Shown here: piece by piece, positions 27,215 to 57,168 of the stretch
Position numbering within the stretch: position 1 is the stretch's first letter
Layout: each line of letters opens with the position of its first letter
NCBI GenBank assembly: GCA_964607285.1
Contig: CAZSJW010000007.1
Location: 3,079-67,078, forward strand
Source of the DNA: an uncultured Pseudomonadales bacterium
GTDB taxonomy: Bacteria; Patescibacteriota; Microgenomatia; UBA1400; PJMF01
Length of the DNA: 64,000 nucleotides
Direction: 5' to 3'
Position numbers and translations under genes: made by a program
Notes under the pieces: generated by a model
What the model was told of the DNA's origin: nothing
The model's database searches: none
The model's input: the letters and a program-made list of their open reading frames with translations, nothing else

Positions 27215-30200
27215 TTATTCTACATCATCGATAGGAATTGATACACAACAGGTGGATATATCGTACCCGTTGAACTTTGAATTCTTTGAGTCAAGAAAAA
27301 TTTTTGGGTTGTTCGAGTAGCGAAGCATGTATGCATCCCAAACACCTTGCCTGTTGGTGGAACTTGCTCCCTTCTGATCAAGAGGGATAACAACCGTGTC
27401 TATCTTGCGTCTTTTGGCGGTTCTCTTAGAATAAGCAACTACTTGATCTAAATAATCATGTGTGTCTATACCAGCTAAGGTATTTTCCAGCGGATTGTTC
27501 CCTCGAATAATAAGTACATCTTTGCCTGTTCTTTTTTCAGTACCTTCAATCAGCAAGAAAGCACCCCCAACCCGACAATTTTTTTTACTCTCAGGATTAC
27601 TCAGGATGATGATCGGCGTGAGCTTGGGATTATTCACCATAATGTCATCCAAGCTTGTCCAACAGGCGTCACTAATGTATCCAGATAGTTCCCCCAGGAT
27701 TCCTCGATCAGGTTTAAACAAGAAAGTGGACGTATTACCATACTCTTGATTCTTCATATGTCGGGATAGCTCTTGCCGTAAACCTTTTACATCGAACATA
27801 TAACTAAGGGCTTTTCTTTTGTTTTGGTCTGGAAATGCCTTTGGTAGGTACTCTTGGATGATGGTATGTTCAAATAACTCTACTAAATTTGCCATTGCCT
27901 CAAAGCTTAGTCGAGCACTGCTTACCTCCTGGAGATTACCTCTTATTGCGGTATTTTTTTTCACGAATGTGTGAAGGATTGCACTTCTTAAAAATGAATC
28001 AATGGCTGTGTTCCTTTTAAATACTTGCTTGCTTGCAAGCAACACATCTATCAATTGATCTACTGTTGATATTTTTTGCATTGCTACAATTATGCCCTCT
28101 AGGGAGGCTAGCTGACTTTTTAAGAGAGGTGCAACCTCAGAGTTGACTGCTAAAGTAGCTGTAACCCTCGAAATTTGCTGGTTTATTAGTTCATGCATTG
28201 ATTGCTGTACTTCAGCAATCATCTGCTGAGGAGCAATTTGAGAATCGAAATCAATTGCTTTGAGCAAAGTGTTTTGTAGGCTCAAGAATTGAGAACGAGA
28301 TTCCTGGGTAAACTCAATCTCATCAGAAGATAAGTCTGTAGAAAGAACTCGAACTACTTCTTCTTCATACCCCAGGGCTATCTCAAGTTCTCCTCTGCTC
28401 TCAGCTTCAAGCACTGAAATGAGAACTGTTTCCAGTCGTTTGCTTCTAGACGATTGACTAATATCAAAACGGGTGAGGCCACGCACTAACTCAGCTACAA
28501 CCGGGTTTCTCATTTCTTGGATACTCAATTTTTTCCTCAATATCTTTTCAATCAAATCAGTAACACGTGCTTTCAGTTGTTTTCTACCCTCTGCACCCAA
28601 TTCAGTGACTCCAAGACTCGCAGCACTCTTTGGAACTTCACTAGCGGTATCAATACTGCAAAATACTCGATACGTCTTGGGTAATACCAGATTTGACATT
28701 GAATCAGTAAAATCAATTACGCGTTTAAATTCTTCAGGTGTGAACTCTTGTAGCTTTGACGCAGGATAGTTTTCCCTGATGAACTTCCATAACTTATTTG
28801 CATCTATACTTTTAGTTACCTCAAAAAACATTTTTACAAACCATGCACTAACACTAAAGTTCAATATTTCTGTGTACAGACTAAGCGTTTCATCGAGTTT
28901 TACAAACCCGTGTGGATGAGCCATCGAATATGATATGAGTACATCTGCAAATGTTTGGTCTATGCCAAACAACTGAGCAATGACTACCTGATGCTTAGTC
29001 CATAGTTCAAATATTTTTACCCCATCATATATATATTTCTTTTCTTTCTGATCGTTCTGAATATTGCATTTTTCTCTCAGAGCTCTAAATAGAAGTAGTT
29101 GCTGTTCTGTACTTTCTTTTTTGTGGTCTGCTGTATCAGAAATCAGAATCAATGCAAACTGTTGCTCACTCGGATCGTACTGTACCTCAGTCAATCTCGA
29201 TGACAACTCCTCGATGTCTCCCTTTTTAGAAAAGCTGAAAAGCTGGGCTAAGGCACCAGCATGCCTTCCGTCAGTATTTAAATTAGTAAGTGAACCATCT
29301 GGGCTAAGTAACCAGTTCCGAACTGCTGGTATTCTCAAAAGTTTTTTCTGATCTTCCTCTGAATGGCTGTTCAGTAGTGATTGTTGCAGTGAGGATGAGA
29401 TTTGAGTTGCATCAGTTCTATAGCTTGAAGAAAGAGTAATAAACTCCTGGGCTCTATCAGGTTGTTTTAAAATCATCTGAAAGATAATATTATTAAGAAA
29501 ATCTATTGTGTTCTCATTTGTTGGCGTAAGTACTCCAAGCAGTTTGTGAAATACTTCTAAATCTGCGGCTATTTCACCTGCAAAGCCTTCACCAACTGTG
29601 CGTATAATGGTTGACATTTCCAGAAGCACTACATTAGGACTAGTGTCTCTAAGCCAAGGGAGAGACTTTAAAATGAATGCATCCCATATCTTGCTTGCCA
29701 ATTCATTTTTTGTTGTAACTATCAGTTGAATAAAAACTTCTAAAAAACCAATATACTTCATACCATCCTGATGATCACAGTTGGTAATAATATGAAGTAC
29801 TATGTCCACAGCATGTTCCAGAAACGTATCAGGAACTTCAGAGCCATTTACTACAAGTAAACATATCATATTCAAGTAGTCCATCTGTGAAAGCTGTGCT
29901 AATCCCGCAAGAAAATCTGGGTTAGATGCAGTTGGTAATTTTTTTTCTACACATACATCACTTAGCGCATAATGCGCTTGAGTAAACACCCAATCATGCT
30001 CTGGTTGAACATTTGGTTGAAACTGTATCGCATCTAAAAACAAACGAAAATCACCGCGGGATAATTGAAGATTGATGACACGCCTCAAGAAAAGATCTCT
30101 ATCATTTATCAAGAAGTCCTCCACAGTATGTAACTCAAACAACTCAGAGATAACAGCGTGCTGCCGAAGCTGCAGCTCATCTATGGCATCATATGAATTT

Positions 30201-30754
30201 GATGTGTATCCAATTTTATCTTGCTCAACAAGCTCTATAAGCTTTTCATCAGGCAAGCTATGTAAATACTCAGGGATGTTGATCATACGTCTCCATAATG
30301 CATCCTCAAGATTTTTAAGAGTTTCGCCAGTAACTGCAGCAATAGCATCTGCTCTCTCAAGAATGCTGGCGTGCAAACTTATGAGCATTTCCGAATTATT
30401 CTTAATAAACCTCAGGTAATGAGTTACTCTCCCAAGCTCGAAAACGGATTTAGCATTTGAAATAAATTTTTGCAGCATCTGCATATGCTTCCCATAGAAC
30501 TCCTCATCAACATGCACTGGTAAAGATCCAGCCTTGACTTCGCTGATAGATACCGCAGAATCCATTATGGAAAAAAGTGTGTCCTTTTGAAAAGGGTACA
30601 CAGACATCAAAAAACCGGGCTCATTGTATCCACCGTTTTTACTGAAAACACTTAAGTCAGCAATGATCTTAGCTGTATCTTCTTTCGAGAAAAAAACTTC
30701 AGCATCAACGTTCTGCTCTTGATCTAAACTGGGTGAAAATAACTGTTCAGCCAT
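27215..30754 (-). CDS. giant hypothetical protein (1179 aa), mostly alpha-helical, with a C-terminal Cys/His/Asn-containing region
   Basis: Uninterrupted 3.5-kb ORF with no recognisable domain. The C-terminal ~180 aa contain ISDACWTSLDD, GIDTHDY and YSNNP in a Cys-His-Asn order. Confidence 0.55.
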   Translation of the reverse strand: MAEQLFSPSLDQEQNVDAEVFFSKEDTAKIIADLSVFSKNGGYNEPGFLMSVYPFQKDTLFSIMDSAVSISEVKAGSLPVHVDEEFYGKHMQMLQKFISNAKSVFELGRVTHYLRFIKNNSEMLISLHASILERADAIAAVTGETLKNLEDALWRRMINIPEYLHSLPDEKLIELVEQDKIGYTSNSYDAIDELQLRQHAVISELFELHTVEDFLINDRDLFLRRVINLQLSRGDFRLFLDAIQFQPNVQPEHDWVFTQAHYALSDVCVEKKLPTASNPDFLAGLAQLSQMDYLNMICLLVVNGSEVPDTFLEHAVDIVLHIITNCDHQDGMKYIGFLEVFIQLIVTTKNELASKIWDAFILKSLPWLRDTSPNVVLLEMSTIIRTVGEGFAGEIAADLEVFHKLLGVLTPTNENTIDFLNNIIFQMILKQPDRAQEFITLSSSYRTDATQISSSLQQSLLNSHSEEDQKKLLRIPAVRNWLLSPDGSLTNLNTDGRHAGALAQLFSFSKKGDIEELSSRLTEVQYDPSEQQFALILISDTADHKKESTEQQLLLFRALREKCNIQNDQKEKKYIYDGVKIFELWTKHQVVIAQLFGIDQTFADVLISYSMAHPHGFVKLDETLSLYTEILNFSVSAWFVKMFFEVTKSIDANKLWKFIRENYPASKLQEFTPEEFKRVIDFTDSMSNLVLPKTYRVFCSIDTASEVPKSAASLGVTELGAEGRKQLKARVTDLIEKILRKKLSIQEMRNPVVAELVRGLTRFDISQSSRSKRLETVLISVLEAESRGELEIALGYEEEVVRVLSTDLSSDEIEFTQESRSQFLSLQNTLLKAIDFDSQIAPQQMIAEVQQSMHELINQQISRVTATLAVNSEVAPLLKSQLASLEGIIVAMQKISTVDQLIDVLLASKQVFKRNTAIDSFLRSAILHTFVKKNTAIRGNLQEVSSARLSFEAMANLVELFEHTIIQEYLPKAFPDQNKRKALSYMFDVKGLRQELSRHMKNQEYGNTSTFLFKPDRGILGELSGYISDACWTSLDDIMVNNPKLTPIIILSNPESKKNCRVGGAFLLIEGTEKRTGKDVLIIRGNNPLENTLAGIDTHDYLDQVVAYSKRTAKRRKIDTVVIPLDQKGASSTNRQGVWDAYMLRYSNNPKIFLDSKNSKFNGYDISTCCVSIPIDDVE

Positions 30755-31944: not shown

Positions 31945-32928
31945 TTAAAAAAGTGCTTCTTGAACGGACAACTCAAACTGGTCTTTTGGTAACAATGAAA
32001 TAAGAGATCTAAACTCTAGTTCCTCAAATCGCTCTGCTACTACAGCCTTATCATATGACCTCAGCAGGCAGTCGTCCAGAGTAAACTCGATAGGCACATC
32101 CCTCTGAATTCGTGCTAAGTTTTGGCTCAAGTATGCTTGTGTTTTTTCTGCCAACAGTTTCTGGGTTAGGGCAGGTTTAAACAGAGAAGCATGCTTGTTT
32201 CGTTTGGATTCATCTTCCACTACCTCGTAGACACCGTCCAGTGAACCAAAAGTAGCTATCAGGTTCACCGCAGTTTTCTGACCCACTCCCTTGACACCAG
32301 GAATATTGTCTGATGCATCACCCATTAAAGCTTTAAGATCAACAATTTGATTGGGGAAAACACCCATTTTTTTCAATACACCCTCCGAATCGTACTCTAT
32401 ATCGTGTGTTTGCACCCCTTTACGAACAGCCCGCGCTGGGATCCACACTGTAACTTGGGGGTCTACTAACTGAAATAAGTCTTTATCTCCCGTGATCACC
32501 GTGGACAAAATGTCTAGTCTGTCATGTAACTGCTGAGTAATAGTACCGATGAGATCATCAGCTTCATACCCCTCAAGGGAAAACTGTGGGATGTTTAATG
32601 TAGTAACCAAATCTTTAATAATCTGAATTTGTGGTTTGAGATCATCGGGCATTTCTGGTCTGTGCGCTTTGTACTCTGCATACGCTTGAGCTCGCTGCGT
32701 CGGACCTTTATGATCAAACGTCACTACACAATACTCTGGGCGGAAATCGGACAAAACAGTCAGCAATATTCTGGTAAATCCATATACAGCATTTACCAAA
32801 GTGCCATCGGCAGCTGTCAAACCAGGAAAAGCATGATAGGCACGGTAAATAAGCGCATGTCCATCAATGAGGAGTAGTCTTTTGCGATCTGCAGTTTCTA
32901 GATAGTGTTCTGTAAGTGTCTCAGGCAT
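31945..32928 (-). CDS. stand-alone 5'-3' exonuclease (Pol I N-terminal/FEN-like domain)
   Basis: LLLIDGHALIYRAYHA, GYEADDLIGT and ITGDKDLFQLV motifs, plus the H3TH motif ASDNIPGVKGVGQKTA. Confidence 0.85.
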   Translation of the reverse strand: MPETLTEHYLETADRKRLLLIDGHALIYRAYHAFPGLTAADGTLVNAVYGFTRILLTVLSDFRPEYCVVTFDHKGPTQRAQAYAEYKAHRPEMPDDLKPQIQIIKDLVTTLNIPQFSLEGYEADDLIGTITQQLHDRLDILSTVITGDKDLFQLVDPQVTVWIPARAVRKGVQTHDIEYDSEGVLKKMGVFPNQIVDLKALMGDASDNIPGVKGVGQKTAVNLIATFGSLDGVYEVVEDESKRNKHASLFKPALTQKLLAEKTQAYLSQNLARIQRDVPIEFTLDDCLLRSYDKAVVAERFEELEFRSLISLLPKDQFELSVQEALF

Positions 32929-36725: not shown

Positions 36726-37592
36726 TTACAACTCTTCAATTTGAATTGTTGGAGCCATCTCAGGTGCGTCTATAAGTTTAAGATATTTTTCTGTAGTTGT
36801 AATCCGCTTGTGACCAACTAATTGTGAAACATACACTAGTGGTGTCCCTGCACGGAGTTGCTCAACAATGAAGGTGTGTCGCAAATCATTAACCTTTGCA
36901 TCACGGATGCCCGCTAAACGGAAGTAGCGATCTATAGCTGTGCGAATGTTGCGAACTAAGAATGGTCTACATGTCTTAGTCAGGAATATCACTTTTTCTC
37001 TGGCTCTTGGGCGAACCGTGAGGTATTCCTGAAGTGAGTTTTTTGCCGCCAGGTTCATGGGCACTTTTCGTGTACCTCGAGAATTTTGTGGTTGAATGGT
37101 GATAATGTTGCGATCGAAATCAATATCTGAAAGTTCTAGGGCTGCTAGCTCACTGATTCTCATGCCTGTTTGAAGCAACAACTCAACAACAGCAGACATG
37201 CGAACGTCACCACGACAAGCATCTCTAAGTGCTCGATACTCTAGTTTGGATAATACTCGAGGAGGAGATTTATCAAACTTAGGATGCAGGATTTCATCAG
37301 CAGGATTACTGGCAATCAAGCTTTGGCTCATCAAGAAACGAAAGAAAGCTTTTATGGAGTTAATCTTGCGAGAGATTGATTTGCCTGTGTATCGCTGCTT
37401 TTTCAATAACTCTTTAAACTCGTCGATGTCATCAGACTGGACTTCATCTACTAGTGTTTTGCCTTTTTTGCCAACATGCTCGACTAACTGCTCAATATCT
37501 TTGCTATAGGCAATAACAGTTGCGTTTGCTTTACCAGCTGCTTTGAGATTGTCGGTAAACAGCACGTGGGCATCTGATAATACGGTACTCAT
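36726..37592 (-). CDS. tyrosine site-specific recombinase (XerC/XerD-like)
   Basis: N-terminal SAM-like core-binding domain. Catalytic residues in order: R (MRISELAAL), HTF (DLRHTF), GHKRITTTEKY. Confidence 0.8.
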   Translation of the reverse strand: MSTVLSDAHVLFTDNLKAAGKANATVIAYSKDIEQLVEHVGKKGKTLVDEVQSDDIDEFKELLKKQRYTGKSISRKINSIKAFFRFLMSQSLIASNPADEILHPKFDKSPPRVLSKLEYRALRDACRGDVRMSAVVELLLQTGMRISELAALELSDIDFDRNIITIQPQNSRGTRKVPMNLAAKNSLQEYLTVRPRAREKVIFLTKTCRPFLVRNIRTAIDRYFRLAGIRDAKVNDLRHTFIVEQLRAGTPLVYVSQLVGHKRITTTEKYLKLIDAPEMAPTIQIEEL

Positions 37593-39056: not shown

Positions 39057-39061
39057 CAGTG

Positions 39062-39130
39062 TTGCGGAGCCGGGAGTCGAACCCGGCCTGTGAGATTATG
39101 AGCCTCACGTGCACCGTACACTACCCCGCG
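39062..39130 (-). tRNA. tRNA with CAT anticodon, probably initiator tRNA-fMet (C1-A72 mismatch), short D-arm
   Basis: Manual fold of the minus strand: CGCGGGG-TA-D arm-TGAGG-CTCATAA-TCTCA-CAGG-CCGGG-TTCGACT-CCCGG-CTCCGCA-A. The 5' and 3' ends match the E. coli initiator tRNA pattern. Only 69 nt, so the D-loop assignment is uncertain. Confidence 0.55.
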
Positions 39131-39240: not shown

Positions 39241-39314
39241 GCCAGGGTAGCTCAGTTGGTTAGAGCATGGGATTCATAAACCCAAGGTCGAGAGTTCGAA
39301 TCTCTCCCCTGGTA
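39241..39314 (+). tRNA. tRNA with CAT anticodon (elongator tRNA-Met or lysidine-modified tRNA-Ile2)
   Basis: GCCAGGG-TA-GCTC-AGTTGGTTA-GAGC-A-TGGGA-TTCATAA-ACCCA-AGGTC-GAGAG-TTCGAAT-CTCTC-CCCTGGT-A. Canonical cloverleaf with G1-U72; CCA is not encoded. Confidence 0.8.
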
Positions 39315-39320
39315 CAAATA

Positions 39321-39800
39321 TTAAACAGTTCGCTCCAAACTCACATCGATCTCCACAAAACCTTGCTGCTTATAAAACTTGATTGCGCCCAGGTTTGCCC
39401 AATAGGAATTTACGAACAATTTTTGATACCCATTTTGCACAGCCCACTCTCTACAGACCTCAACTAACTGCGCGCCAACACCTTGCGATCTAAACTCTGG
39501 CATAACGCCCATATTGTCAATTTCTAGGTATTTTGATCTGCGATAGTCGATTGGCTTGTGGCTGGCTGCTAGGTACCCAACAGGTTTGTTCTCTTCACTC
39601 ATTGCCAAGAAGCAAACAGCACTAGGATCAACAACTAGATTGCGGTAATACGCCTCCCCAGCCGGTGACTGCGCCCAATCTACCAGCATGTCAGGATCGT
39701 ACTGCGCATTATCAGTTATCACTTGGTCATTGAGTGCCTGTACTGCCTGCCATTCATCAGACCGGGCTTGGCGAATTGTTATCATGGGGATAGTATACAA
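39321..39800 (-). CDS. GNAT-family N-acetyltransferase
   Basis: Acetyl-CoA binding motif RSQGVGAQLV (Q/R-x-x-G-x-G/A) and typical GNAT length. Its start abuts the stop of the upstream giant ORF (39800/39801). Confidence 0.8.
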   Translation of the reverse strand: MYTIPMITIRQARSDEWQAVQALNDQVITDNAQYDPDMLVDWAQSPAGEAYYRNLVVDPSAVCFLAMSEENKPVGYLAASHKPIDYRRSKYLEIDNMGVMPEFRSQGVGAQLVEVCREWAVQNGYQKLFVNSYWANLGAIKFYKQQGFVEIDVSLERTV

Positions 39801-42800
39801 CTAATCAGCATACTTCTTTAAAAGTCTTTGAAGACTTACCACGTTCCTTACCAGCAGCAGAATTTCAAGTGGAGGAGTGACTCCTTCAGGGAGTTTAGCC
39901 ATAATAATGGGCAGTAGATGTGCTTTATCTTCAGTACTCGTCATGTTAAGCGCGTTTGGTACTTCCATAAGTACAGCTTGTCCAATATTGATAATCATAG
40001 CTTCAATACTATTTTCTGGGATAGCATTTCTCCTAAGTATAGCTGCTAGCAAACTATGAAAAAACTGCATGGTTTCTCCTTGCAACAACAGCTGTGCAAT
40101 GCTGCATTCCTCCGGTGTTAACTTCAAGTACATATGTCGATCAAGAACCGCCGCAACAGGCTTGGGACTGCTGAACAAATGCTTCCAATTCCTTATTGGA
40201 TGTGGATTAATCATGTAGTTTCCCAGATGTGGATCTGAGTGCAATAACTGAACATTTCTACCATCTAAGGTGGACGATTGCTGCTCTTGAATTTGAGATA
40301 CAAATAAACGCATCAGCTCCTGAGCAACATGCTTTTTGTCCGCGTACGGCGTACTGGCATCAGCGAAATATGCATTCATTGTTTGTCCGGTAGCACGTGT
40401 TTCAATTTTGACCTTTTTAGAATTAAACAAGACTTTCGGTACTGAAAAATCAAATGTGCCAGATGTTAACTTGCGTACGAACGGAGCGTATAACTCGTCA
40501 TCCCTTTCAAAAGTTGCATCAGTAATTTCTGCCATACACCATGCATGAGCAGTACCAAGTAAGAGTTCCACGATCGAGATCTCATGTTGCCACTTGGTAT
40601 CTTCAGAATTCTTTAATTCTTCAACTACCTTTTTCAGTGCTAAATAACTTTCTGTAACGATGCTTTCTGCATTGGGATTGAGAAACTTAATTACAGCTGA
40701 AGTTTTCCTGCCAAAACGACTTGCTAGTGTCAATTCAAAAGTAGTAAATAAACTACCACCACCCAAGTACTCTCCTATGCTGACTTTTCTAGAGCGAAAA
40801 AAAGCCGATAGTTTTGGGTCAGAATCTAGCCATTTTCTCAGATTTTCTAGCGCAAAGATTTTCTCAATTCCTGGATTACGATCCAAACTATTATCCAATC
40901 GCGCTTCAACCTCTGGAGAAAAAGAGTACATTTGACGCGCAAGCTGCAAACATTTCACACCAACTGGACTAGACCATTCCACGGCCGAAATAACTGTCTC
41001 AAGTGCATGGCTAATTTTTGTTTGCTGTTCAAGCGTTACATCATTTCCAGCTTGTTCGGCAACATTTTTACCATTAACAGGTGGCAATGTTTCTAATCGA
41101 CTATTGAGGATACTGTAGATTTCACGAAATACCTGGTCGCTACGCTCTGCCTTCTGCGATATCCAGGCATGGGGAGATGTGCTGTAGTTATGGCTTGTAA
41201 CTCTAATTTGATCAGTTGAAGCAGCCAATATTCGCTTTAGTTGCGCCTTATCTGCAATTTTATTTGCAATTTTTGGATTTTGTAGTAACTCTGCCACATC
41301 TACCCGTGCCACTGCCAATCCTTGAAATAATAGTGGACTAATTAACCTACTTGCCGATAATGCTACGAGCTTTGTGTTACCATTAGTTATTGCAGCTTTC
41401 ATGAGCAACTCAACAAATTCATTTTCTAGTCCTACCGCCTTCTTAATTACATCAAACAGCTGTGTTCGAGCATTTTTATTAGCAAGCACTCCATGACGCT
41501 CAGTCAGCGCTTTGGTTGCCAAAAAGAAACGCGCTGTTTCAGACATACCCTTCAGTAGAGAAATCAGATCAGAGAATGAAATAAATAAACTGGTTTTTCT
41601 TGCCGCAAATTTCCCTTGCTCTGGTATGAACGTAGCGGATAATTCCCTACCCACCCCAGACCTTTCCGCCGTTATATTGAACTGACTCCAGAGAGCAGCT
41701 AACTTTGTGCTAGCTTGCTTGGAGCCATCATCCGTATCATCTGAGGTTTGAAGAACCTCTAACTGTTTGCCAGAGAAAAAATGATTTGCCAATTCCAGAG
41801 CAATGAATCCAAGTGTTGCGTCGTTCGGTGATTCTAGCAGCTTGTCAATTTGCTCATGCATTGCAGCATATAGATATTGATAGTCTGAAAAGTCATGGAT
41901 AGTCTTACCAATCACTATCAGTCCTTCCGCACCTATATCTGCAAAATTATCTAGCAAGACTATAACTCGTCTTTTGAAAGGAATTGCAGTATTGGCAATG
42001 TACTTTAGATTTATTCTTCTCAATATTGCAACCGTTTCAAACGTATTTTTAGGCAGAAATCTTAGAACGATTTCATGAATCTCAATAACACTCAATTTGG
42101 TTGACGTCACATTTAGAAGCTCAAGTAAATTTTCACGATACCTCTCACCCAATACAACCAGCCATGGTTCTTGAGAAAATATGTCGGAAAATCTCCCTTC
42201 ATCGTCGCCTTTTGTTAGATTGTAAAATGGATCCTTAAAAAGGGAATAAAAAACTTTTAACTGTTGTACAAGCTCGGCAATACTCATTGCTTTTGGCAAC
42301 ATCTGCAGTTTTTCAGCCACCGCAGTCGCCATTGGCATGTGGTGAAACTGATCTGCTGGCAATGTAAAGCTACTACTTGTTCCAGAATTGTTTGCCACCC
42401 AATGTTGCTGAATGGTATTCATAGCAAATTGACTTACTGACCAGTGAGCACCTGATCCTTTATTAAGGTAAACGAAAAACCTAATTTGTTGTTCGAGTGA
42501 GAGCTGCTCTATAAAGGGTGAAATGCCAGAAATCGCCTCCTGCAACAAAGGGAGACTTTGTGCATCCAATGATGGCAACATCTTAGATAAGATATTTACC
42601 TTGATTAGTGCTTTTAAAAATAGGGAATTGAATTCATCGGAAGCTTCTATGTTTCCATTTGGATTGCGACTCAGTGATTCAGCAGGAGATTTTGCCAAAA
42701 ATACTAAAGGATCATTTGTTGTTTTGACATCTAATGAATCGACGTATCTAAATAGCAGCTGCACAGTTTCCTGCAAAGTAACTTCAGACATGTATTTGTG

Positions 42801-44585
42801 TTGCTCTAAATACCTAAGTAAGATCTCAATTGGTTCTGCGGAGCAGTACTCTTCCGAGTTGGAATTGCCAAATGAAGATACTAAATACCTATCAATTAAT
42901 TCCTGAATTGTTGGGATACTACTTACTTCTTTCTTAAGAGATAGACCAAATACTTCTGCGATTACCTCGTACAATTGCGCTTCATTAGACCCAGGCGCAC
43001 TTTCCTCATAGAGATCTACTATTTGATTTCTAATCATTTCTGGTGGGAAAATATGCAGTTCTTTTGCTGTAGTGAAAAATTTTATTGCTTCTTCTCGAAC
43101 AAATACTTGATTAACCCATGCAACATCTGCGATTCGCATCATCCAAATACTGCATTTTTCTCTAAATTGGTGTATGTGTGTCGTTGCAGTATTGAATATA
43201 TTTCCGCTTGTCAAATTAAACCAATACATGAAAAATGTCATTTTCTTAAACTCAGAGTTCCAGGTATTATTAACCATTATTTTTTTATGCAAAGTCAATA
43301 ATTTGAAGAACAATTCTGGACTTAGCTCTAGTATATTTTTTTTACTAAAATCGGTGATAAATGCACTGAAGACATCTGGGCAATCTACTCTATTTTGGAC
43401 TGCATAACCAAAAATATTTTGATACATTTGTAGTAAAACATTTCTATTTTCCAGCTCCTCCAATGCATCAATGAAAGTTCCTACTTCCTCTAGGGATGAA
43501 AACAGATGAGTTGGGAATTCCATGTTACGACTAAAATTCAGACTGAGGCTCATTTCAAAAATAACTCGCTCATCTTGCGAGTATCCGGCATCCGCTATGC
43601 GCCTAGAGATCTCAGCAACCAAAGCTGTACGAAGTTTTATCCACACAAAATAATTATACGAATCAAAATTCCTCTGAATTCGATTTATTACATAAAACAG
43701 ATCTCTCCCATGCAGTGAACCTAAAATATTCGATAAAACAGTCAACTGTTCACCTTGTTTTCTTGTAGCTTCATCGTCGGATGCGTACACCAAACTACCT
43801 ATAAGCTCAGCATTTGTCGGCTTAATGCTTGTTGTATGTAGCGGTTTCGACAAGTCCTTAAGGCTCAAGTGACTTGTTGCCGAATCTCGCAGGTGATGGA
43901 CAGCAGCAGATAGAACCGCTGAGTGTAACTCCTTAGCTACAGTCTCAATTGCTCTGGTGTTGTATCCCGCTTGCTCAAGAATTTCCAGACTTTCTTTAGC
44001 TGCTACTGCTTCATGCGCCCTACCTAGGGCGTATCCATGCAATGCAGAAATATCCGATGCAATTTCAGCTGTAAGTGCGGACTGCCTTTGCAACTTTGCT
44101 ACCTCAGGAGCTAGCACAGCAGCCAGCTCGTCCTCTGAGTGAACTCTGTTCAAAGCAGACTGAGTAACACAGACCGTGCCATCTGCAAACGATGTCACTT
44201 TCGGTTCCAACCCTCGTTTTAGAATGATTACTCTGATTTTCTTATTGGTATCTCGGAATAACTTTCTCAATATATTATTTATGTAGTTGCATCTCTCAGT
44301 GTCCAGCTCGCCTTCTCCTGTTTGAAAGAGATAATTAATTTCTGATAGAATCTCAGATGCAAGAATGTCCTGAGTTCTAACAAGTTTTCCTTGTTGCCGT
44401 TCTAAAAATGATAATATTGGATTTGCTGCTGCATCGACGGCAGTTTGATTTTTAACTTCAATCGGTTGCAACAGTTGCAGCGCCTGTGAATCGGTAGGAT
44501 AATCACGATGGAATTCTTCCGGTCGCAGTGAAAGCTCGATTTTTTCTACACTCTGATTCATACTGAATGCCTTGCAACTAATCAT
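39801..44585 (-). CDS. giant multidomain protein (1594 aa): N-terminal degenerate M48-peptidase-like motif, long helical middle region, C-terminal ABC1/UbiB/ADCK-type atypical protein-kinase-like domain
   Basis: N-terminus: TSFADGTVCVTQSALNRVHSEDELAAVLAPEVAKLQ matches the M48 pattern NAFA-x-G...dELxAVLAHExxH, but reads PEVAK in place of HExxH. C-terminus: glycine-rich loop SIGEYLGGGSLFTTFEL, VAIK-like AVIKFLNP, catalytic loop HSDPHLGNYMINP (compare UbiB HADPHPGN), and LD in place of DFG. Confidence 0.65.
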   Translation of the reverse strand: MISCKAFSMNQSVEKIELSLRPEEFHRDYPTDSQALQLLQPIEVKNQTAVDAAANPILSFLERQQGKLVRTQDILASEILSEINYLFQTGEGELDTERCNYINNILRKLFRDTNKKIRVIILKRGLEPKVTSFADGTVCVTQSALNRVHSEDELAAVLAPEVAKLQRQSALTAEIASDISALHGYALGRAHEAVAAKESLEILEQAGYNTRAIETVAKELHSAVLSAAVHHLRDSATSHLSLKDLSKPLHTTSIKPTNAELIGSLVYASDDEATRKQGEQLTVLSNILGSLHGRDLFYVINRIQRNFDSYNYFVWIKLRTALVAEISRRIADAGYSQDERVIFEMSLSLNFSRNMEFPTHLFSSLEEVGTFIDALEELENRNVLLQMYQNIFGYAVQNRVDCPDVFSAFITDFSKKNILELSPELFFKLLTLHKKIMVNNTWNSEFKKMTFFMYWFNLTSGNIFNTATTHIHQFREKCSIWMMRIADVAWVNQVFVREEAIKFFTTAKELHIFPPEMIRNQIVDLYEESAPGSNEAQLYEVIAEVFGLSLKKEVSSIPTIQELIDRYLVSSFGNSNSEEYCSAEPIEILLRYLEQHKYMSEVTLQETVQLLFRYVDSLDVKTTNDPLVFLAKSPAESLSRNPNGNIEASDEFNSLFLKALIKVNILSKMLPSLDAQSLPLLQEAISGISPFIEQLSLEQQIRFFVYLNKGSGAHWSVSQFAMNTIQQHWVANNSGTSSSFTLPADQFHHMPMATAVAEKLQMLPKAMSIAELVQQLKVFYSLFKDPFYNLTKGDDEGRFSDIFSQEPWLVVLGERYRENLLELLNVTSTKLSVIEIHEIVLRFLPKNTFETVAILRRINLKYIANTAIPFKRRVIVLLDNFADIGAEGLIVIGKTIHDFSDYQYLYAAMHEQIDKLLESPNDATLGFIALELANHFFSGKQLEVLQTSDDTDDGSKQASTKLAALWSQFNITAERSGVGRELSATFIPEQGKFAARKTSLFISFSDLISLLKGMSETARFFLATKALTERHGVLANKNARTQLFDVIKKAVGLENEFVELLMKAAITNGNTKLVALSASRLISPLLFQGLAVARVDVAELLQNPKIANKIADKAQLKRILAASTDQIRVTSHNYSTSPHAWISQKAERSDQVFREIYSILNSRLETLPPVNGKNVAEQAGNDVTLEQQTKISHALETVISAVEWSSPVGVKCLQLARQMYSFSPEVEARLDNSLDRNPGIEKIFALENLRKWLDSDPKLSAFFRSRKVSIGEYLGGGSLFTTFELTLASRFGRKTSAVIKFLNPNAESIVTESYLALKKVVEELKNSEDTKWQHEISIVELLLGTAHAWCMAEITDATFERDDELYAPFVRKLTSGTFDFSVPKVLFNSKKVKIETRATGQTMNAYFADASTPYADKKHVAQELMRLFVSQIQEQQSSTLDGRNVQLLHSDPHLGNYMINPHPIRNWKHLFSSPKPVAAVLDRHMYLKLTPEECSIAQLLLQGETMQFFHSLLAAILRRNAIPENSIEAMIINIGQAVLMEVPNALNMTSTEDKAHLLPIIMAKLPEGVTPPLEILLLVRNVVSLQRLLKKYAD

Positions 44586-49822: not shown

Positions 49823-50617
49823 CTACTTGGTATCAGCTAAAACTGCGTCATGCGGTGCATCAGTCGGACCAGCACCAGCGGATTTCTCCTGATAACGCTT
49901 GATCATTCTGAGCGCAACTTTGATTAAGGTCAAGATGATACTGAAGATTAGTGACGTGATGACAAATAACTTCTTCCCAGCTGGCAACGCCATAAATACC
50001 ACAAATGAAACTAATGGTAAAACTAGTTGCAAACGCACTACCTCATCACGGCGAACAGGATACGGAGAAGTGTATAAAGAAATTGTTTCTAGCACGAAAA
50101 TCAGCAGAGACTGGATTGCATTCAGAGAATAGCTAGTGTGTGACAGATCAAACAAGCCCATAAAGTTCAAATTGAATGGCAACGCAACATCAGGCATGAT
50201 TGGATATATCAAATGAATATCCTCACCTGGCAAACCAGTAGAGAACATTTTCCACAACATCAAAGCAATAACCACTTGAATTGCAAGGTTGATTAGTTCG
50301 GAAACTAACACACGGCGATTAGTTTTAAATACGTTCTTTTTCTCTTTTTCTAACCTAATTGGATCAGATGCGTATGCTGCTTCCAATTCTTTAACTTTTT
50401 CAGCAATCTCCCTACGCTCCTTCTCTGAACGATCACCTGCTATCGATAACGGTAGCAGAAGTACTCTGATGAAAATTGTCAGCAAAATAACCGCTACACC
50501 CATATCTGGTTTGCCATCCATTACGAACCCCAAACACCAATAAAAAAACACAATGACATTAAAGAGTGGCTGATAAATAAATGTAATAAATAGTTCTGCC
50601 ATGAAAAATACGGCCAA
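49823..50617 (-). CDS. yidC: YidC/Oxa1-family membrane protein insertase (short form)
   Basis: Conserved TM2 region VAVILLTIFIRVLLLPLSI and five TM helices. Confidence 0.7.
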   Translation of the reverse strand: MAVFFMAELFITFIYQPLFNVIVFFYWCLGFVMDGKPDMGVAVILLTIFIRVLLLPLSIAGDRSEKERREIAEKVKELEAAYASDPIRLEKEKKNVFKTNRRVLVSELINLAIQVVIALMLWKMFSTGLPGEDIHLIYPIMPDVALPFNLNFMGLFDLSHTSYSLNAIQSLLIFVLETISLYTSPYPVRRDEVVRLQLVLPLVSFVVFMALPAGKKLFVITSLIFSIILTLIKVALRMIKRYQEKSAGAGPTDAPHDAVLADTK

Positions 50618-51023: not shown

Positions 51024-52181
51024 GTGCATTTTCCAGGCAGTATAATAGCAGTTGAAAATGAAGAAAACATGAAACGAATCCAAATCGCAAGTATACCTAC
51101 AAGTGACTTACTTTCGCAAACTATTGCCGTTTTAAAATCTGGTGGTTTAATTTTGTTTCCCACAGAAACTACTTATGGCGCAGGTGTTGATGCAACCCAA
51201 CCAAAAGCTGTAAACAAGCTGCTAGCATATAAATCTCGCCGTGAGGGTAAACCCCTCTCAATTGCAGTCGCTAACCAAGAGATGGCTGAACAGTACGTAA
51301 TACTCAACGAGCAAGCACGCACACTGTACCGACAGTTTCTGCCTGGTCCACTAACTGTTATCTCTCAAGCAATTCCAGAAGCTGTCGCTCCTGGAGTTGC
51401 ATCTGAGTTTGGTAGTCTTGGCGTACGCATACCCGCATACCCCTTAATTCTTAATTTGATATCCGTGTATGGAAAACCCTTAACTGCAACCTCAGCTAAC
51501 GCGTCAGGAAAAGCTCGCCCCTATACTATTGATGGCTGTTTAGCAGACCTATCTGCCAAGCAAAGATCTCAGATTGATCTCATCCTAGATGCCGGTGAGC
51601 TACCCCCAAATCCTCCTTCAACCATTATAGATACTACGCTCAGTACTCCAGTCACGTTTCGTACAGGACAACTGCAACTCTCTGAGGATCAGTCAGCAAG
51701 CACAGAACTTACAAGCAAATCTGCTGTAGAAACACAAGGTATAGCAGGTAAATTTTTACTGAAACATTGGAACGCCATCCGCTCTTATGGCCTTCTGGTT
51801 GGACTTGATGGTAGCTTGGGGGTTGGTAAAACTGTATTTACAAAAGGCATCGCACAGTTTCTTGGTATTACTGATCGAATGACATCACCCACATACAGTT
51901 ATATTGAATCGTACGATTACTCAAGGCATGGTGTGAATGGAACACTGCATCACCTTGATCTATGGAAAGTGGGCTCTGTAGCTGAGCTAGACCGACTTGA
52001 AATTTCCCGACTTCTCCAACCAAATGATGTGGTTGTCATTGAGTGGTTTGGGTCATTTTCAAAAGAATTAGCACTGCTTGCTAAGCAAAAAAGCACACCG
52101 CTCGTACACGTAGCAATTACTGATAGAGACCTTGAGATATCACACAGACGACTCATCGTCACAGAGATACCATCATCATGA
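51024..52181 (+). CDS. fused t6A-pathway protein: N-terminal TsaC/Sua5 (YrdC domain, threonylcarbamoyl-AMP synthase) plus C-terminal TsaE (YjeE P-loop ATPase)
   Basis: YrdC-like N-terminus (ILFPTETTYGAGVDA...SANASGK). C-terminal TsaE motifs GSLGVGKTVFTKG, TSPTYSY and HLDLWKV. The ORF overlaps the start of tsaD by 4 nt. Confidence 0.75.
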   Translation: MHFPGSIIAVENEENMKRIQIASIPTSDLLSQTIAVLKSGGLILFPTETTYGAGVDATQPKAVNKLLAYKSRREGKPLSIAVANQEMAEQYVILNEQARTLYRQFLPGPLTVISQAIPEAVAPGVASEFGSLGVRIPAYPLILNLISVYGKPLTATSANASGKARPYTIDGCLADLSAKQRSQIDLILDAGELPPNPPSTIIDTTLSTPVTFRTGQLQLSEDQSASTELTSKSAVETQGIAGKFLLKHWNAIRSYGLLVGLDGSLGVGKTVFTKGIAQFLGITDRMTSPTYSYIESYDYSRHGVNGTLHHLDLWKVGSVAELDRLEISRLLQPNDVVVIEWFGSFSKELALLAKQKSTPLVHVAITDRDLEISHRRLIVTEIPSS

Positions 52182-53233
52182 AACAGCCAATACTCTTAGC
52201 AATCGACACTTCCTGTGACGATACAGCTGCTGCAGTAACACAAGGCACTGTTGTGTTATCAAATGTGATTGCATCACAAACTGAACTACATAAACCGTAT
52301 GGAGGAGTCTTCCCAACCGTTGCTAAGCAAGCCCACAGAGAAAATATCGCCCTCTGCATTCAAAAGGCTTTACAAAAAGCGGGTGTTTTGCCCAGTCAAA
52401 TTGAAGCTGTAGCAGTAACTCAAGGCCCTGGATTAGCACCCTCTCTGGAGGTTGGCATACACTATGGACAAGAGTTTGCTACAACACACCAGATACCAGT
52501 ATATGCACTCAATCACCTTGAGGGGCATCTCTTTAGTGTCCTCGCAGAGCCAAACCGAAGAATTACCGTCCCCAATAGAGAAATCAAAGTACAGTTCCCA
52601 GCAATAGGGCTAATCGTCTCTGGAGGAAACACCCTTTTTGTGAAAGTTGAAGACTTGCAGTCTTTCACCGTTTTGGGCAGCACTTTAGATGACGCTGCTG
52701 GTGAGTGCCTAGACAAAATTGGACGAATGCTCAACCTTGGTTATCCGGCAGGCCCTGTTATTGAGCAATTTGCCCGTTTGGGAAACCCTCAGCGATTCCC
52801 TTTTCCTTTGCCACTAACAACCGTTAAATCCTTTGATCTCAGCTTTTCTGGACTAAAGACATTCGCCAGAAACAAGCTAGAAACACTTGAAAAAAATGGC
52901 AGCTTAGATACACAAACTATCTATGACCTCTGCGCCGCTGCACAATCTGGAGTGTTTCGGCACATTACCTACAAACTTGAGAAGCTGCTACCTAACCAAA
53001 ACATCTCCGAGCTATGGTTAGGAGGAGGTGTTGCTGCTAATAGCACACTACGCAGAGAGTTACGAAAACTATTGAGACGTGTCTATCCAAATAAAAAAGT
53101 CCCATTACGTGTTCCATACACAAAGCGTTTATGCATGGATAATGCTGCAATGATTGGGGTGGCTGCGTACGCAAACAGTAAGAACCGTGTACATAGAACC
53201 CAAATCGATCGAGTTCCACGCCAAACACTATAA
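52178..53233 (+). CDS. tsaD: tRNA N6-adenosine threonylcarbamoyltransferase TsaD (Kae1/YgjD family)
   Basis: LAIDTSCDDTAAAV, metal-binding HLEGH and GGGVAAN motifs. Confidence 0.9.
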   Translation: MKQPILLAIDTSCDDTAAAVTQGTVVLSNVIASQTELHKPYGGVFPTVAKQAHRENIALCIQKALQKAGVLPSQIEAVAVTQGPGLAPSLEVGIHYGQEFATTHQIPVYALNHLEGHLFSVLAEPNRRITVPNREIKVQFPAIGLIVSGGNTLFVKVEDLQSFTVLGSTLDDAAGECLDKIGRMLNLGYPAGPVIEQFARLGNPQRFPFPLPLTTVKSFDLSFSGLKTFARNKLETLEKNGSLDTQTIYDLCAAAQSGVFRHITYKLEKLLPNQNISELWLGGGVAANSTLRRELRKLLRRVYPNKKVPLRVPYTKRLCMDNAAMIGVAAYANSKNRVHRTQIDRVPRQTL

Positions 53234-54318: not shown

Positions 54319-54985
54319 CTGGCGTATCCGTACTTGGCAATTGATCCATTAACCGCTCTATATCGTCTACAGCCATATCAGCAAATCGATTACCCTCAAG
54401 ACTATCTACTACTGCTGAAGACAACATCCTCTGCATCTCAATGTCCACCTTATAATACAAAGCCAGTATCTGCCTCATGAGCAAGACAGTCTCTGACTGT
54501 TTGTTAGCCTCAGCTGCCAATACAGCTGGTTGCATAACATCAATCAATCGTTCAATCTCTGCTTGGTTTGCTTGCCCAGCGTGCACTTCTGTAACAAACT
54601 GTCTCAGCATGCGTGTAATAAAAGGTGCGACCGTAAAACCAAATTCCTGTTCAAAGCCATCAATACCTTGAGATCGTATACTTCCTGAGAAGACAGTCTC
54701 TAGTACAGACAATACTTTCTCTCTGCTAACATCAAGATCTTCACTAACTTCCTGATAGGATGCAATTTTTTCTAGAAGAACCTTTGGATTAGCAGAGGTA
54801 GCATGTTGTAGAACCTCTGTGACCAAGCTATGCAGATCTAAAGAAGCAGCACGTTCTAAGGTTACCCTAACTTCTTTTCCGATCGGTTCTTCAGTGGCTT
54901 CATGCTCTGGAACCACAGTTACTGAGCCGTTCTTTTCCATACAATTTATTTTACACCATGTATGAAGCAAAGTTAAATAGGACAA
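54251..54985 (-). CDS. hypothetical protein (possible N-terminal part of a frameshifted ~410-aa gene)
   Basis: 244-aa ORF. Confidence 0.35.
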   Translation of the reverse strand: MSYLTLLHTWCKINCMEKNGSVTVVPEHEATEEPIGKEVRVTLERAASLDLHSLVTEVLQHATSANPKVLLEKIASYQEVSEDLDVSREKVLSVLETVFSGSIRSQGIDGFEQEFGFTVAPFITRMLRQFVTEVHAGQANQAEIERLIDVMQPAVLAAEANKQSETVLLMRQILALYYKVDIEMQRMLSSAVVDSLEGNRFADMAVDDIERLMDQLPSTDTPDDPHNAFFYQFRRVALDNSLTS

Positions 54986-57168
54986 GCCCCACTCTCACAC
55001 TTGAGATGCTCATAGTCAATATCTTCTGCGAGTGCTTCATCTTTCTCTATTTCATCCAAGACCCGCATAAACTCCGATATAGTAACTGGCTGCTCTGGCT
55101 GGTACTCATAGGCAGTAGCATCTTGCTGAGGCATAACACTACAGCATTTGATTAGCCCCTGGTACTTAGACACCATATCTGCATACTCTTTGTACGAGAC
55201 TTTTTTGGGATCGTACTTCAGTGTGTATGAGACTTGGTTGCCCGTATCTTCCAAAGGCTCACCATTTTCATCTACACCGACAATCCAATACTTTTCCAGT
55301 AGCATCAACCATTTGTATTGTTCTTCTGGTGTGGCTTCTCCAGCAGTTACTAGTTCACCATTCATGCCAATTCTACAAATGAGTGGCTGGGTAGGAAAAC
55401 CAATTGCGGTTGTACCCTGATAACTTTTAAGTTCTTTTGTTGGATACCCTTTTTTCTTGTATTTTTTGACCAGTGGATCATCACTACTATATTGAACCCA
55501 CCGAATGTACTCTCGCATACTCGGTAAGTGTGCACCTTCTGTAAGGGCGAATAACTTAGAAATTGTGCCTGAAGGTTTAATCGTTGTATTTGTATGTGGA
55601 ACAACCACGCCCAATTTTTTTGAGTAGCTTTCAGCTTCCTCTACTACAGCACGCTTGAAACGCGCTAAAGTCATCCAAAAATCCTTAGACTTCTCCTCGT
55701 CAATTAAGTCTCTGAACGAAAAGCCGAACATATTCCAAGCGAACTCATGGATACCAGTCATACCAACACCTATGCGATTAGTCCGTTTGACTTCTCGATT
55801 GTACAAAGAGTCCATTGTGTTCACTCGAATGAGTGCTCTGGTGACTGCCCTGTACGCTTCCTCCGCATCGTCAACTGTTGGACAAAAGTAGGGCACTACA
55901 TCTGCAATTACACAGTATCCACCCAACATATTCAAAGAAATTTCACCACAGGGGTTAGGAATTTGGGAGTACACCTTTGCTCCAGCATTGCGCGCAATCT
56001 TTGCTAGCATCTTGACTGTACGCTCCATCGGTTTGTATTTTGCACTTTCAGCATAGTGACCATCTTGATAACCGTCGTAACCCTCATCATTTTGTACCAG
56101 ACGATGCTGATTTATAAATCCAGGCTCGCCTGTACCATCTTCATAAGAGGCCTTCATGATGAGCTGTAAGACTTTTTTAGCATGGCTATTTTTTTGTTTC
56201 CAGAATTTATCATCTACAGAAATTGAGTTATTTGCACTCCATAAAAATCCACCACGTTTTATAGATATAAAGTCGAAAATTTCTGGATCTGTCCATACTT
56301 TGGTTGCAATACGAGCACTTCTGCGCGCACCACCCACCAGCACACATTCAGCCAAATAGTGGTCAGCAAATAATGCCTGTTTCCAAGGAGACATATCGGC
56401 ACCCTTGATAGTTGCTAACTTCTCAATTGCATTCATCAATGGCTTAGGACCAGATGAAGGACGGTTTTGCATACCTTTAATTGGGCTGCCCTTTGGTCTA
56501 ACATCAGAAAAATCTAAGATAAGCAAATCGTCTTTATACTTCTTCTCATAAGCCATTACTTCAATCATCTCAACAGCCTGAGCCCAACCTTCACGACTAT
56601 CTGGTACTGTGAACCAGTGAATCCCTCGGCCTTCACCATACTTATGCTTAGCATCTCGAACACTTTCATCAAAGCCCCAGACAAAATCTGGGTGAGTATC
56701 AGAGATCACTAATCGAACGTTTGGCATGAAATCCCAATCAACTAAACACATATCATCATCATATGGTCTACCCACTCCTGAACCATTCATAAGCAGGTAA
56801 AATAAAATGTATGATGAAGAGGCAGTTGAACAATTGGTAAACACTTCCATGTTTCGACTAGACTGGGTTTCATCTCCATGTTGCAAATGCCGACCTGACA
56901 TTAAGACTGAGCCATTGCTAATATGCTTCTTGAGTAATTCAAACTCTGCTTTGCGATGAGCACTCTCTGATTTAGGCGCCAAACTAGTATTCCCAATTGC
57001 TACCCGTTCAGCCACCTCGGGCCACGTCTCCCATCGCTCCTTTTTAGTTTCTTTGTCGATGACTTGGCGCAAATAAGTACGTCTTGCTACAGCGATACCC
57101 ATTCCTTTATCAAGACTACGCTCTACGAATCGCATGCGTTTTTTAGGAAGTGTTGCTGCAGGTGCCAT
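54973..57168 (-). CDS. nrdJ: class II (adenosylcobalamin-dependent) ribonucleotide reductase NrdJ
   Basis: Active-site NPCGEISL, TIKPSGTIS, and the C-terminal redox pair CESGAC. 731 aa. Confidence 0.85.
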   Translation of the reverse strand: MAPAATLPKKRMRFVERSLDKGMGIAVARRTYLRQVIDKETKKERWETWPEVAERVAIGNTSLAPKSESAHRKAEFELLKKHISNGSVLMSGRHLQHGDETQSSRNMEVFTNCSTASSSYILFYLLMNGSGVGRPYDDDMCLVDWDFMPNVRLVISDTHPDFVWGFDESVRDAKHKYGEGRGIHWFTVPDSREGWAQAVEMIEVMAYEKKYKDDLLILDFSDVRPKGSPIKGMQNRPSSGPKPLMNAIEKLATIKGADMSPWKQALFADHYLAECVLVGGARRSARIATKVWTDPEIFDFISIKRGGFLWSANNSISVDDKFWKQKNSHAKKVLQLIMKASYEDGTGEPGFINQHRLVQNDEGYDGYQDGHYAESAKYKPMERTVKMLAKIARNAGAKVYSQIPNPCGEISLNMLGGYCVIADVVPYFCPTVDDAEEAYRAVTRALIRVNTMDSLYNREVKRTNRIGVGMTGIHEFAWNMFGFSFRDLIDEEKSKDFWMTLARFKRAVVEEAESYSKKLGVVVPHTNTTIKPSGTISKLFALTEGAHLPSMREYIRWVQYSSDDPLVKKYKKKGYPTKELKSYQGTTAIGFPTQPLICRIGMNGELVTAGEATPEEQYKWLMLLEKYWIVGVDENGEPLEDTGNQVSYTLKYDPKKVSYKEYADMVSKYQGLIKCCSVMPQQDATAYEYQPEQPVTISEFMRVLDEIEKDEALAEDIDYEHLKCESGACPI

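Follow-up and report, generated by a model that had tools for sequence, protein, structure and literature searches.

Proteins of the UbiB/ABC1/ADCK family, such as E. coli UbiB, human COQ8A/ADCK3, M. tuberculosis Rv3197 and plant ABC1K, share a protein-kinase-like fold. UbiB proteins are ATPases with an occluded active site (10.1101/149823; PMC8956952), the binding and hydrolysis of ATP being the only activity conserved among those studied (10.1101/149823), and an Ala-rich loop (AAAS) instead of a Gly-rich one is their defining feature (PMC8956952). In the periplasmic M48 peptidase BepA of E. coli, the catalytic domain is followed by a helical, presumably substrate-binding, region; Geobacter Q74D82 (PDB 3c37) is another soluble M48 peptidase. 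The two families are found together on plastoglobules and cyanoglobules, where ABC1 kinases co-reside with an M48 protease (PGM48, sll1280; PMC8956952, PMC12223511). The stretch of DNA analyzed here, 64,000 nucleotides from an uncultured bacterium (hereafter, the window), contains a large gene whose product appears to combine both families in one polypeptide. The gene is a single coding sequence of 1594 amino acids (aa), located at 39801..44585 on the minus strand, as are all of its features given below, with the stop codon at 39801-39803. Its relatives are built to one plan: a soluble BepA/3c37-like M48 domain, a helical scaffold of ~950 residues, and a C-terminal UbiB/ABC1 kinase-like domain. 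The reading we favor, with a probability of about 0.6, is that the window protein is an ATP-using scaffold protein of this M48-UbiB family, the protease arm of which is now a non-cleaving binder.

A preliminary description of the locus had proposed a giant protein of this length with recognizable motifs at both ends and a long uncharacterized helical stretch in between. All motifs quoted there were located at checked positions, including the N-terminal run TSFADG...VCVTQSAL...EDELAAVLAPEVAKL, within which PEVAK occupies aa 160-164. The copy of the protein at NCBI, P0001 from a contig of 70.8 kb, starts at M9 (44559-44561) and has 1586 aa. The open reading frame (ORF) of 4.8 kb is uninterrupted, and a mis-assembly of several genes could be dismissed, since aa 395-1594, when compared exhaustively by HMMER with 1.84 billion cluster representatives, retrieved 222 relatives at E ≤ 1e-3, of which 114 reach E ≤ 1e-30; nearly all of them are 1500-1700 aa long and match the whole query. 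Full-length alignments of the relatives are colinear from the N-terminal domain through the last helix. Hence, the ORF is one genuine gene, whose product is a divergent representative of a so far unnamed family (proteins of 1500-1700 aa). The architecture, presumed unique in the preliminary description, recurs in more than 200 clusters at 50% identity.

The family is easily overlooked. Word-indexed searches returned only the protein itself when the whole sequence was used, missed even the self-match when started from the N-terminal 394 aa, and gave one extra match with the family profile; the orphan status that such results imply was rejected on the strength of the HMMER search. Likewise, single-protein scans of genome and metagenome contigs yielded no match where alignment-based scans succeeded, and a motif census by regular expressions missed many members, so that alignment-based counts are more trustworthy. 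Taken singly, the window protein is sub-threshold in Pfam at both ends: Peptidase_M48 is matched at aa 134-166 with E 0.0015 and 18.9 bits (cut-off 20.3 bits), and ABC1 at aa 1371-1463 with E 0.0077 and 15.8 bits (cut-off 22.9). Phmmer comparison of the whole protein or either end with PDB gave nothing significant. NCBIfam contains no curated model for the M48 and UbiB combination, only weak HtpX and BepA matches being obtained, and the family carries no name in protein collections. No relatives were found in viral contigs, no PADLOC model matched the window protein, three relatives or the acetyltransferase encoded downstream at E ≤ 0.01, and no account of the architecture was found in the literature on M48 or ABC1/UbiB proteins in the candidate phyla radiation. 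Both enzymatic domains thus come from known superfamilies; what is new is their combination in an undescribed family.

The N-terminal domain, a degenerate M48-like metallopeptidase domain, was delimited by the family profile and Pfam at aa 85-235 (43881..44333). Pfam Peptidase_M48 (PF01435) was detected in all 30 members scanned individually (best E 7.9e-16), and the profile of 40 members matched 3c37 (E 1.9e-12), E. coli BepA (E 5e-7) and an HtpX fragment (E 4e-4) in PDB. The alignment with soluble M48 peptidases extends over ~100 columns, which include the strand-turn-helix before the active site, the HExxH helix and the downstream E-x-x-x-D helix; the family consensus for the M48 motifs is DE.AAVLAHE..HL ... 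GW.HE...D. In the window protein, unlike in these peptidases, PEVAK stands where HExxH is expected (aa 160-164, 44094..44108; codons cct gag gta gca aag, read directly). In the HEAVAAK segment (aa 191-197, 43995..44015), which aligns to the NEQEAD stretch of BepA, E192 is kept and the Asp at position 196 has become Ala. H160, H164 and D196 are 100% conserved in the 39 other members of the 40-sequence alignment, the window protein alone having Pro, Lys and Ala, respectively. It is also the only one of the 40 to have lost a conserved segment (..RG..HQ.GL.RA.Q, ~12 residues) located after the domain. The putative third zinc ligand, E192, is invariant, and the conserved positions T89, E93, G136, T137, Q142, N146, D152, E153, E161, H191 and N209 are kept as well.

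Because PEVAK replaces HExxH, the domain is predicted to be an inactive M48 homologue with a destroyed metal site, not an active member of the family. In a census of the first 450 residues of 116 relatives of at least 1400 aa, HExxH was kept in 111. The five exceptions were the window protein, P0076 (HDISH), P0095 (HEIEGH), and two proteins of different architecture. Given this census and the invariance of the three lost residues in the 39 relatives, the loss of the peptidase site is lineage-specific, and an intact metallopeptidase is the ground state of the family. Thus, the earlier proposal of an M48-like N-terminus lacking both HExxH histidines is confirmed; its pseudopeptidase interpretation holds for the window protein but not as the family ground plan, and the M48 match anticipated for residues 1-250 was obtained at the family level but not for the window protein alone. 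As P0076 and P0095 also have altered zinc motifs, erosion of the peptidase site may have occurred more than once. The ratio of M48 to kinase identity in the window protein is the third lowest of the 40, as would be expected if constraint on the M48 domain were relaxed.

The C-terminal domain (aa 1197-1594, 39804..40997) was assigned by Foldseek, hhalign and Pfam to the UbiB/ABC1-type atypical kinase-like proteins, in agreement with the preliminary description. An AlphaFold model of aa 395-1594 was built from a 52-sequence alignment (predicted local distance difference test, pLDDT, 79; predicted template modeling score, pTM, 0.75). Its top 11 Foldseek matches in PDB are all UbiB-family structures, among them COQ8A/ADCK3 (5i35, E 3.8e-7), COQ8A (4ped, target template modeling score 0.61), MSMEG_1954 of M. 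smegmatis (E 6e-6) and Rv3197 of M. tuberculosis (E 7e-5). By hhalign, the family profile aligned to E. coli UbiB with a probability of 91.5% and E 8.5e-7 over 265 columns. Pfam ABC1 (PF03109) was found in 18 of the 30 members scanned (best E 8.7e-13) and APH in three; here too the match exists for the family, but the window protein alone remains below the cut-off.

The UbiB motifs can be followed one after another in the alignment. First, KCLQ (aa 1211-1214, 40944..40955; RxLQ in the family) aligns to the UbiB KxGQ motif of the N-terminal helical lid (family GVR.LQ against UbiB IKFGQ); the basic residue and the invariant Q1214 of the pattern K/R-x-x-Q are kept, but G is replaced by L. Second, the Gly-rich loop GGGS (aa 1275-1278, 40752..40763), contained in IGEYLGGGS, aligns to UbiB ASAS (YLGGGSL against LASASI of the Ala-rich loop), and its G1277 and S1278 are invariant in 40-52 sequences. 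Third, AVIKF (40683..40697) contains the ATP-binding K1300, conserved in at least 90% of sequences and aligned to the catalytic lysine of UbiB VVIK (VVlK.lNPNA against VVIKVIRPD). Fourth, the catalytic loop HSDPHLGN (aa 1449-1456, 40218..40241; HSDPHxGN in the family) aligns to UbiB HADMHPGN (HSDPHvGN in the family profile), with D1451, G1455 and N1456 invariant, and both loops conform to H-x-D-x-H-x-G-N. Finally, LDR (aa 1481-1483, 40137..40145; IDR in the family) stands at the DFG position with invariant D1482 and R1483, and aligns to UbiB IDCG (VIDR against GIDCG). The window protein keeps all (near-)invariant residues, i.e., Q1214, G1277, S1278, K1300, E1395, D1451, G1455, N1456, D1482 and R1483. 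The domain is therefore classified, from sequence and model, as UbiB/ABC1-type with all nucleotide-site residues retained; since the fold, the catalytic Lys, the catalytic loop and the metal-binding Asp match the UbiB family, ATPase or atypical kinase activity is predicted. The stretch INPHPIRNWKHLFSSPKPVA (aa 1459-1478, 40152-40211), which separates the catalytic loop from the DFG-equivalent Asp, is ~10-13 residues longer than in the closest relatives and is modeled at low confidence (model residues 1070-1078).

The preserved nucleotide site bears on whether the gene is in decay, the lost peptidase site being the sign of a non-functional relic that is turning into a pseudogene. The replacement of three family-invariant residues and the deletion of the conserved segment in the M48 domain would fit such a course, and in every region the window protein belongs to the more divergent sequences. 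However, the 4.8-kb frame is open throughout, the UbiB invariants are retained from Q1214 to R1483, and so are many non-catalytic conserved positions of the M48 domain from T89 through N209. Moreover, small streamlined genomes generally shed dead genes quickly. We consider decay improbable.

Some features distinguish the whole family from UbiB: GGGS replaces the Ala-rich loop, L replaces G of KxGQ, and IDR stands for DFG/IDxG. According to PMC8956952, which cites the ADCK3 structure paper, COQ8A gained protein kinase activity in vitro when a single Ala of the Ala-rich loop was changed to Gly, and in the light of this account the native GGGS loop is mechanistically suggestive. AtABC1K6, moreover, shows protein kinase activity (PMC8956952). 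The window protein could be a true protein kinase, the GGGS loop enabling phosphotransfer to proteins, with the dead M48 domain and the helical region recruiting the substrates. Yet the cleft-occluding KxGQ-type lid motif is kept as R/KxLQ with invariant Q1214, and neither a substrate, a docking motif nor a phosphatase partner is evident in the neighborhoods examined. We regard this possibility as unlikely.

The canonical role of UbiB proteins, i.e., handling of quinones or isoprenoid lipids at the membrane, was also considered. It is suggested by the homology to UbiB and COQ8, by the action of UbiB proteins on coenzyme Q (CoQ) precursors and lipids (10.1101/149823; PMC8346625), and by the presence of both ABC1 kinases and an M48 protease on the lipid droplets of plastids and of cyanobacteria (PMC8956952, PMC12223511). 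However, a hydropathy scan of the window protein revealed neither a transmembrane helix nor an N-terminal hydrophobic stretch or signal peptide (the highest 19-residue window scored 1.77), which suggests that the protein is soluble. Thus, it lacks the transmembrane anchor of UbiB proteins, and its kinase-like domain is the terminal part of a 1600-aa protein, preceded by an M48 domain. Nor is the Ala-rich loop conserved, and there are no ubi or men genes within the 64-kb window. Besides, candidate phyla radiation bacteria, to our knowledge, generally lack quinone synthesis and respiratory chains; the hosts of this family, unlike those of UbiB, are probably devoid of quinones. A canonical UbiB function therefore appears quite improbable.

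The two ends are joined by a helical region of ~950 residues (aa 240-1195, 41001..43868), which was delimited by the AlphaFold model and the conservation profile. Model residues 100-870 (aa 495-1265) are almost entirely helical, in line with the long uncharacterized helical stretch noted earlier as part of a single product. Conservation is low in aa 240-800 and higher in aa 801-1160. The only structural matches in PDB were weak ones to solenoid-type proteins (karyopherin, PIKK; Foldseek probability <0.75). The order of peptidase and helical region resembles that of BepA; however, ~950 aa of this region show no detectable tetratricopeptide repeat signature, the window protein, unlike periplasmic BepA, has no signal peptide, and none of the soluble M48 peptidases compared has a kinase-like domain fused at the C-terminus.

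Taken together, these features lead us to the ATP-using scaffold as the preferred reading. The UbiB-like domain would still bind and hydrolyze ATP, or transfer phosphate, with the helical scaffold linking this activity to the N-terminal domain, which in most relatives would cleave the bound substrate and in the window lineage would only bind it. What was an ATP-coupled protease would thus have turned, in the window protein, into a pseudoprotease or a chaperone-like form. Parallels can be seen in the FtsHi proteins of chloroplasts, which are protease-dead, and in BepA, which has a function independent of its protease activity. These parallels are ones of logic only: a zinc-protease fold without HExxH is retained in one chain with an ATP-using domain. 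The ATPase parts are not homologous, being AAA+ in FtsH and protein-kinase-like here, and the protease belongs to M41 in FtsHi and to M48 in the present family.

Several points weigh against this reading. The window protein itself is under the Pfam cut-offs for both M48 and ABC1, and its N-terminal aa 1-300 could be modeled from the single sequence only at low confidence (pLDDT 44); even so, BepA, 3c37, BlaR1 and selecase/minigluzincins ranked first among the PDB matches of this model, at non-significant E-values (≥ 0.02). As E161 and E192 remain, residual or altered metal binding may persist. The coupling of the peptidase and UbiB-like domains is deduced from their fusion, and no conserved gene neighborhood pointing to a substrate was found among the related loci. 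A second copy with an intact site could be present elsewhere in the genome, in which case the reading would turn into one of subfunctionalization. In addition, restriction of the family to Patescibacteria is not proven, given that five of the ten genome loci bear the label 'uncultured Gammaproteobacteria' or a similar one.

The relatives from genomes named at the phylum level are metagenome-assembled genomes (MAGs) of Patescibacteria (candidate phyla radiation): Candidatus Curtissbacteria and Daviesbacteria of the Microgenomates group, and Candidatus Nomurabacteria. One metagenome locus of the family is situated on a contig of 1.15 Mb. Six third-party annotation MAGs (L003, L004, L007, L002, L008 and L010) were deposited as 'uncultured Gammaproteobacteria', Ectothiorhodospiraceae or Pseudomonadales. 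These labels are doubtful, because TsaD encoded on L004 is only 43% identical to E. coli TsaD, which suggests wrong taxonomic labels rather than occurrence of the family in Proteobacteria. The window itself is chromosomal, with groES-groEL, dnaK, ftsH, trpS, pnp, nusA and the PBP1a gene. It shows features of a reduced genome, such as a 488-aa IF-2 (16721-18187), a 264-aa YidC (49823-50617), a stand-alone 5'-3' exonuclease (31945-32928) and a class II/adenosylcobalamin-type ribonucleotide reductase (54973-57168). This reduced gene set fits a candidate phyla radiation genome.

The gene immediately downstream encodes a GNAT acetyltransferase (39321..39785, minus strand; Acetyltransf_1 E 2.2e-18, 67.1 bits against a cut-off of 20.7), for which no NCBIfam equivalog reaches its cut-off. 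The preliminary description had placed its start directly after the stop of the large gene (39800/39801) and proposed that the two are co-expressed as a kinase and acetyltransferase signaling or effector module. The ORF 39321..39800 does abut the stop codon, but only as a mechanically called ORF with a TTG start; the ATG at 39785 (MITIRQ...), 15 nt after TAG, is the more likely start. The two genes lie on the same strand with a gap of 0-15 nt and no terminator-like site between them, and read-through co-transcription in the source genome is possible. However, no GNAT homologue (phmmer, E ≤ 1) was present in any of 24 related loci, 18 of which include at least 800 nt downstream of the large gene. 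These loci comprise 10 genome contigs and 11 metagenome contigs from the alignment-based scans, together with three exact look-ups (P0002, P0003 and P0004). Elsewhere, the downstream genes encode Pribosyltran, PIN, AbiEii, RecA, recombinases or nothing recognizable. The GC content at third codon positions also differs (0.47 in the GNAT gene vs. 0.34 in the large gene), and the GNAT gene lies against a tRNA-Met gene. The synteny survey therefore leaves the proposed module unsupported; we hold it to be highly improbable and GNAT to be probably a chance neighbor, not a functional partner. No att-like direct repeat of the tRNA-Met 3' end bounding the large gene and GNAT was detected, and the scan for promoters and terminators gave counts at or below shuffled expectation.

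Two tRNA-Met (CAT) genes are located on opposite strands 110 nt apart (39061-39130, minus strand; 39241-39315, plus strand). The plus-strand copy ends 5 nt from the GNAT stop codon, and a terminator-like hairpin follows the minus-strand one. In the window (36726-37592), as in the Nomurabacteria locus (L006/L018), a tyrosine recombinase gene is encountered 2.2-2.4 kb downstream of the family gene.

The neighbors of the family gene are not conserved across the related loci. Among them are housekeeping genes (for cysteinyl-tRNA synthetase, CysRS; tryptophanyl/tyrosyl-tRNA synthetase, Trp/TyrRS; RecA, RecG and TsaD), recombinases and, in two loci, AAA_14 ATPases. The family gene often adjoins toxin-antitoxin or mobile-element genes: AbiEii in three loci (L015:3302-3964, L017:6048-6719, L021:2330-2971), PIN in two (L003:12759-13178, L021:1888-2271), and a VirD4-like ATPase together with a serine recombinase in L016 (547-3552, 8851-10446). 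A phosphoribosyltransferase-domain gene (Pribosyltran) flanks it in two unrelated loci (L005:14-562, L012:12805-13437), on the upstream side in one case and 5 nt downstream in the second; the window contains no such gene. Elsewhere in the window, an ORF for a Sua5/TsaC-TsaE fusion (51024-52181, plus strand) overlaps by 4 nt the start of tsaD (52178-53233, plus strand), the two forming a compact operon for N6-threonylcarbamoyladenosine (t6A) synthesis. Two large ORFs on the minus strand have no Pfam or NCBIfam match (27215-30754, 1179 aa; 13546-15393, 615 aa); the 1179-aa one was considered as a paralogue of the large protein and rejected on comparison.

A wider and more speculative idea, which we consider unlikely but worth stating, is that the family constitutes a new kind of nucleotide-coupled protease, in which a Gly-loop UbiB ATPase or kinase, and not an AAA+ module, would gate or drive the M48 peptidase via the helical scaffold, the window protein being a natural protease-dead derivative that would keep only ATP-driven binding. 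If so, the fusion could serve as a 'Rosetta stone' for the joint work of ABC1/UbiB proteins and M48 proteases, because members of both families co-reside on plastoglobules and cyanoglobules, and it would explain that co-residence. In both settings the families occur together, within one compartment there (in plastids, as distinct proteins of a lipid droplet) and within one polypeptide here. The link of the fusion to this pairing is circumstantial, and we know of no lipid-droplet context in candidate phyla radiation bacteria.

Conserved in every domain of life and linked to CoQ-deficiency disease in humans, UbiB/ABC1 proteins are still unsettled in their biochemical role, on which the present family offers three handles. 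First, the domain occurs in organisms that are probably devoid of quinones. Second, its loop is naturally Gly-rich, the kind of change through which, by the account cited above, COQ8A gained kinase activity. Third, it is joined in one chain to an M48 peptidase, a member of the family that accompanies ABC1 kinases on plastid lipid droplets. Among the conserved proteins of ultrasmall bacteria whose function is unknown, the family is one of the larger, and the window copy would represent, as far as sequence can tell, a natural separation-of-function variant, with the peptidase site gone and the nucleotide site intact.

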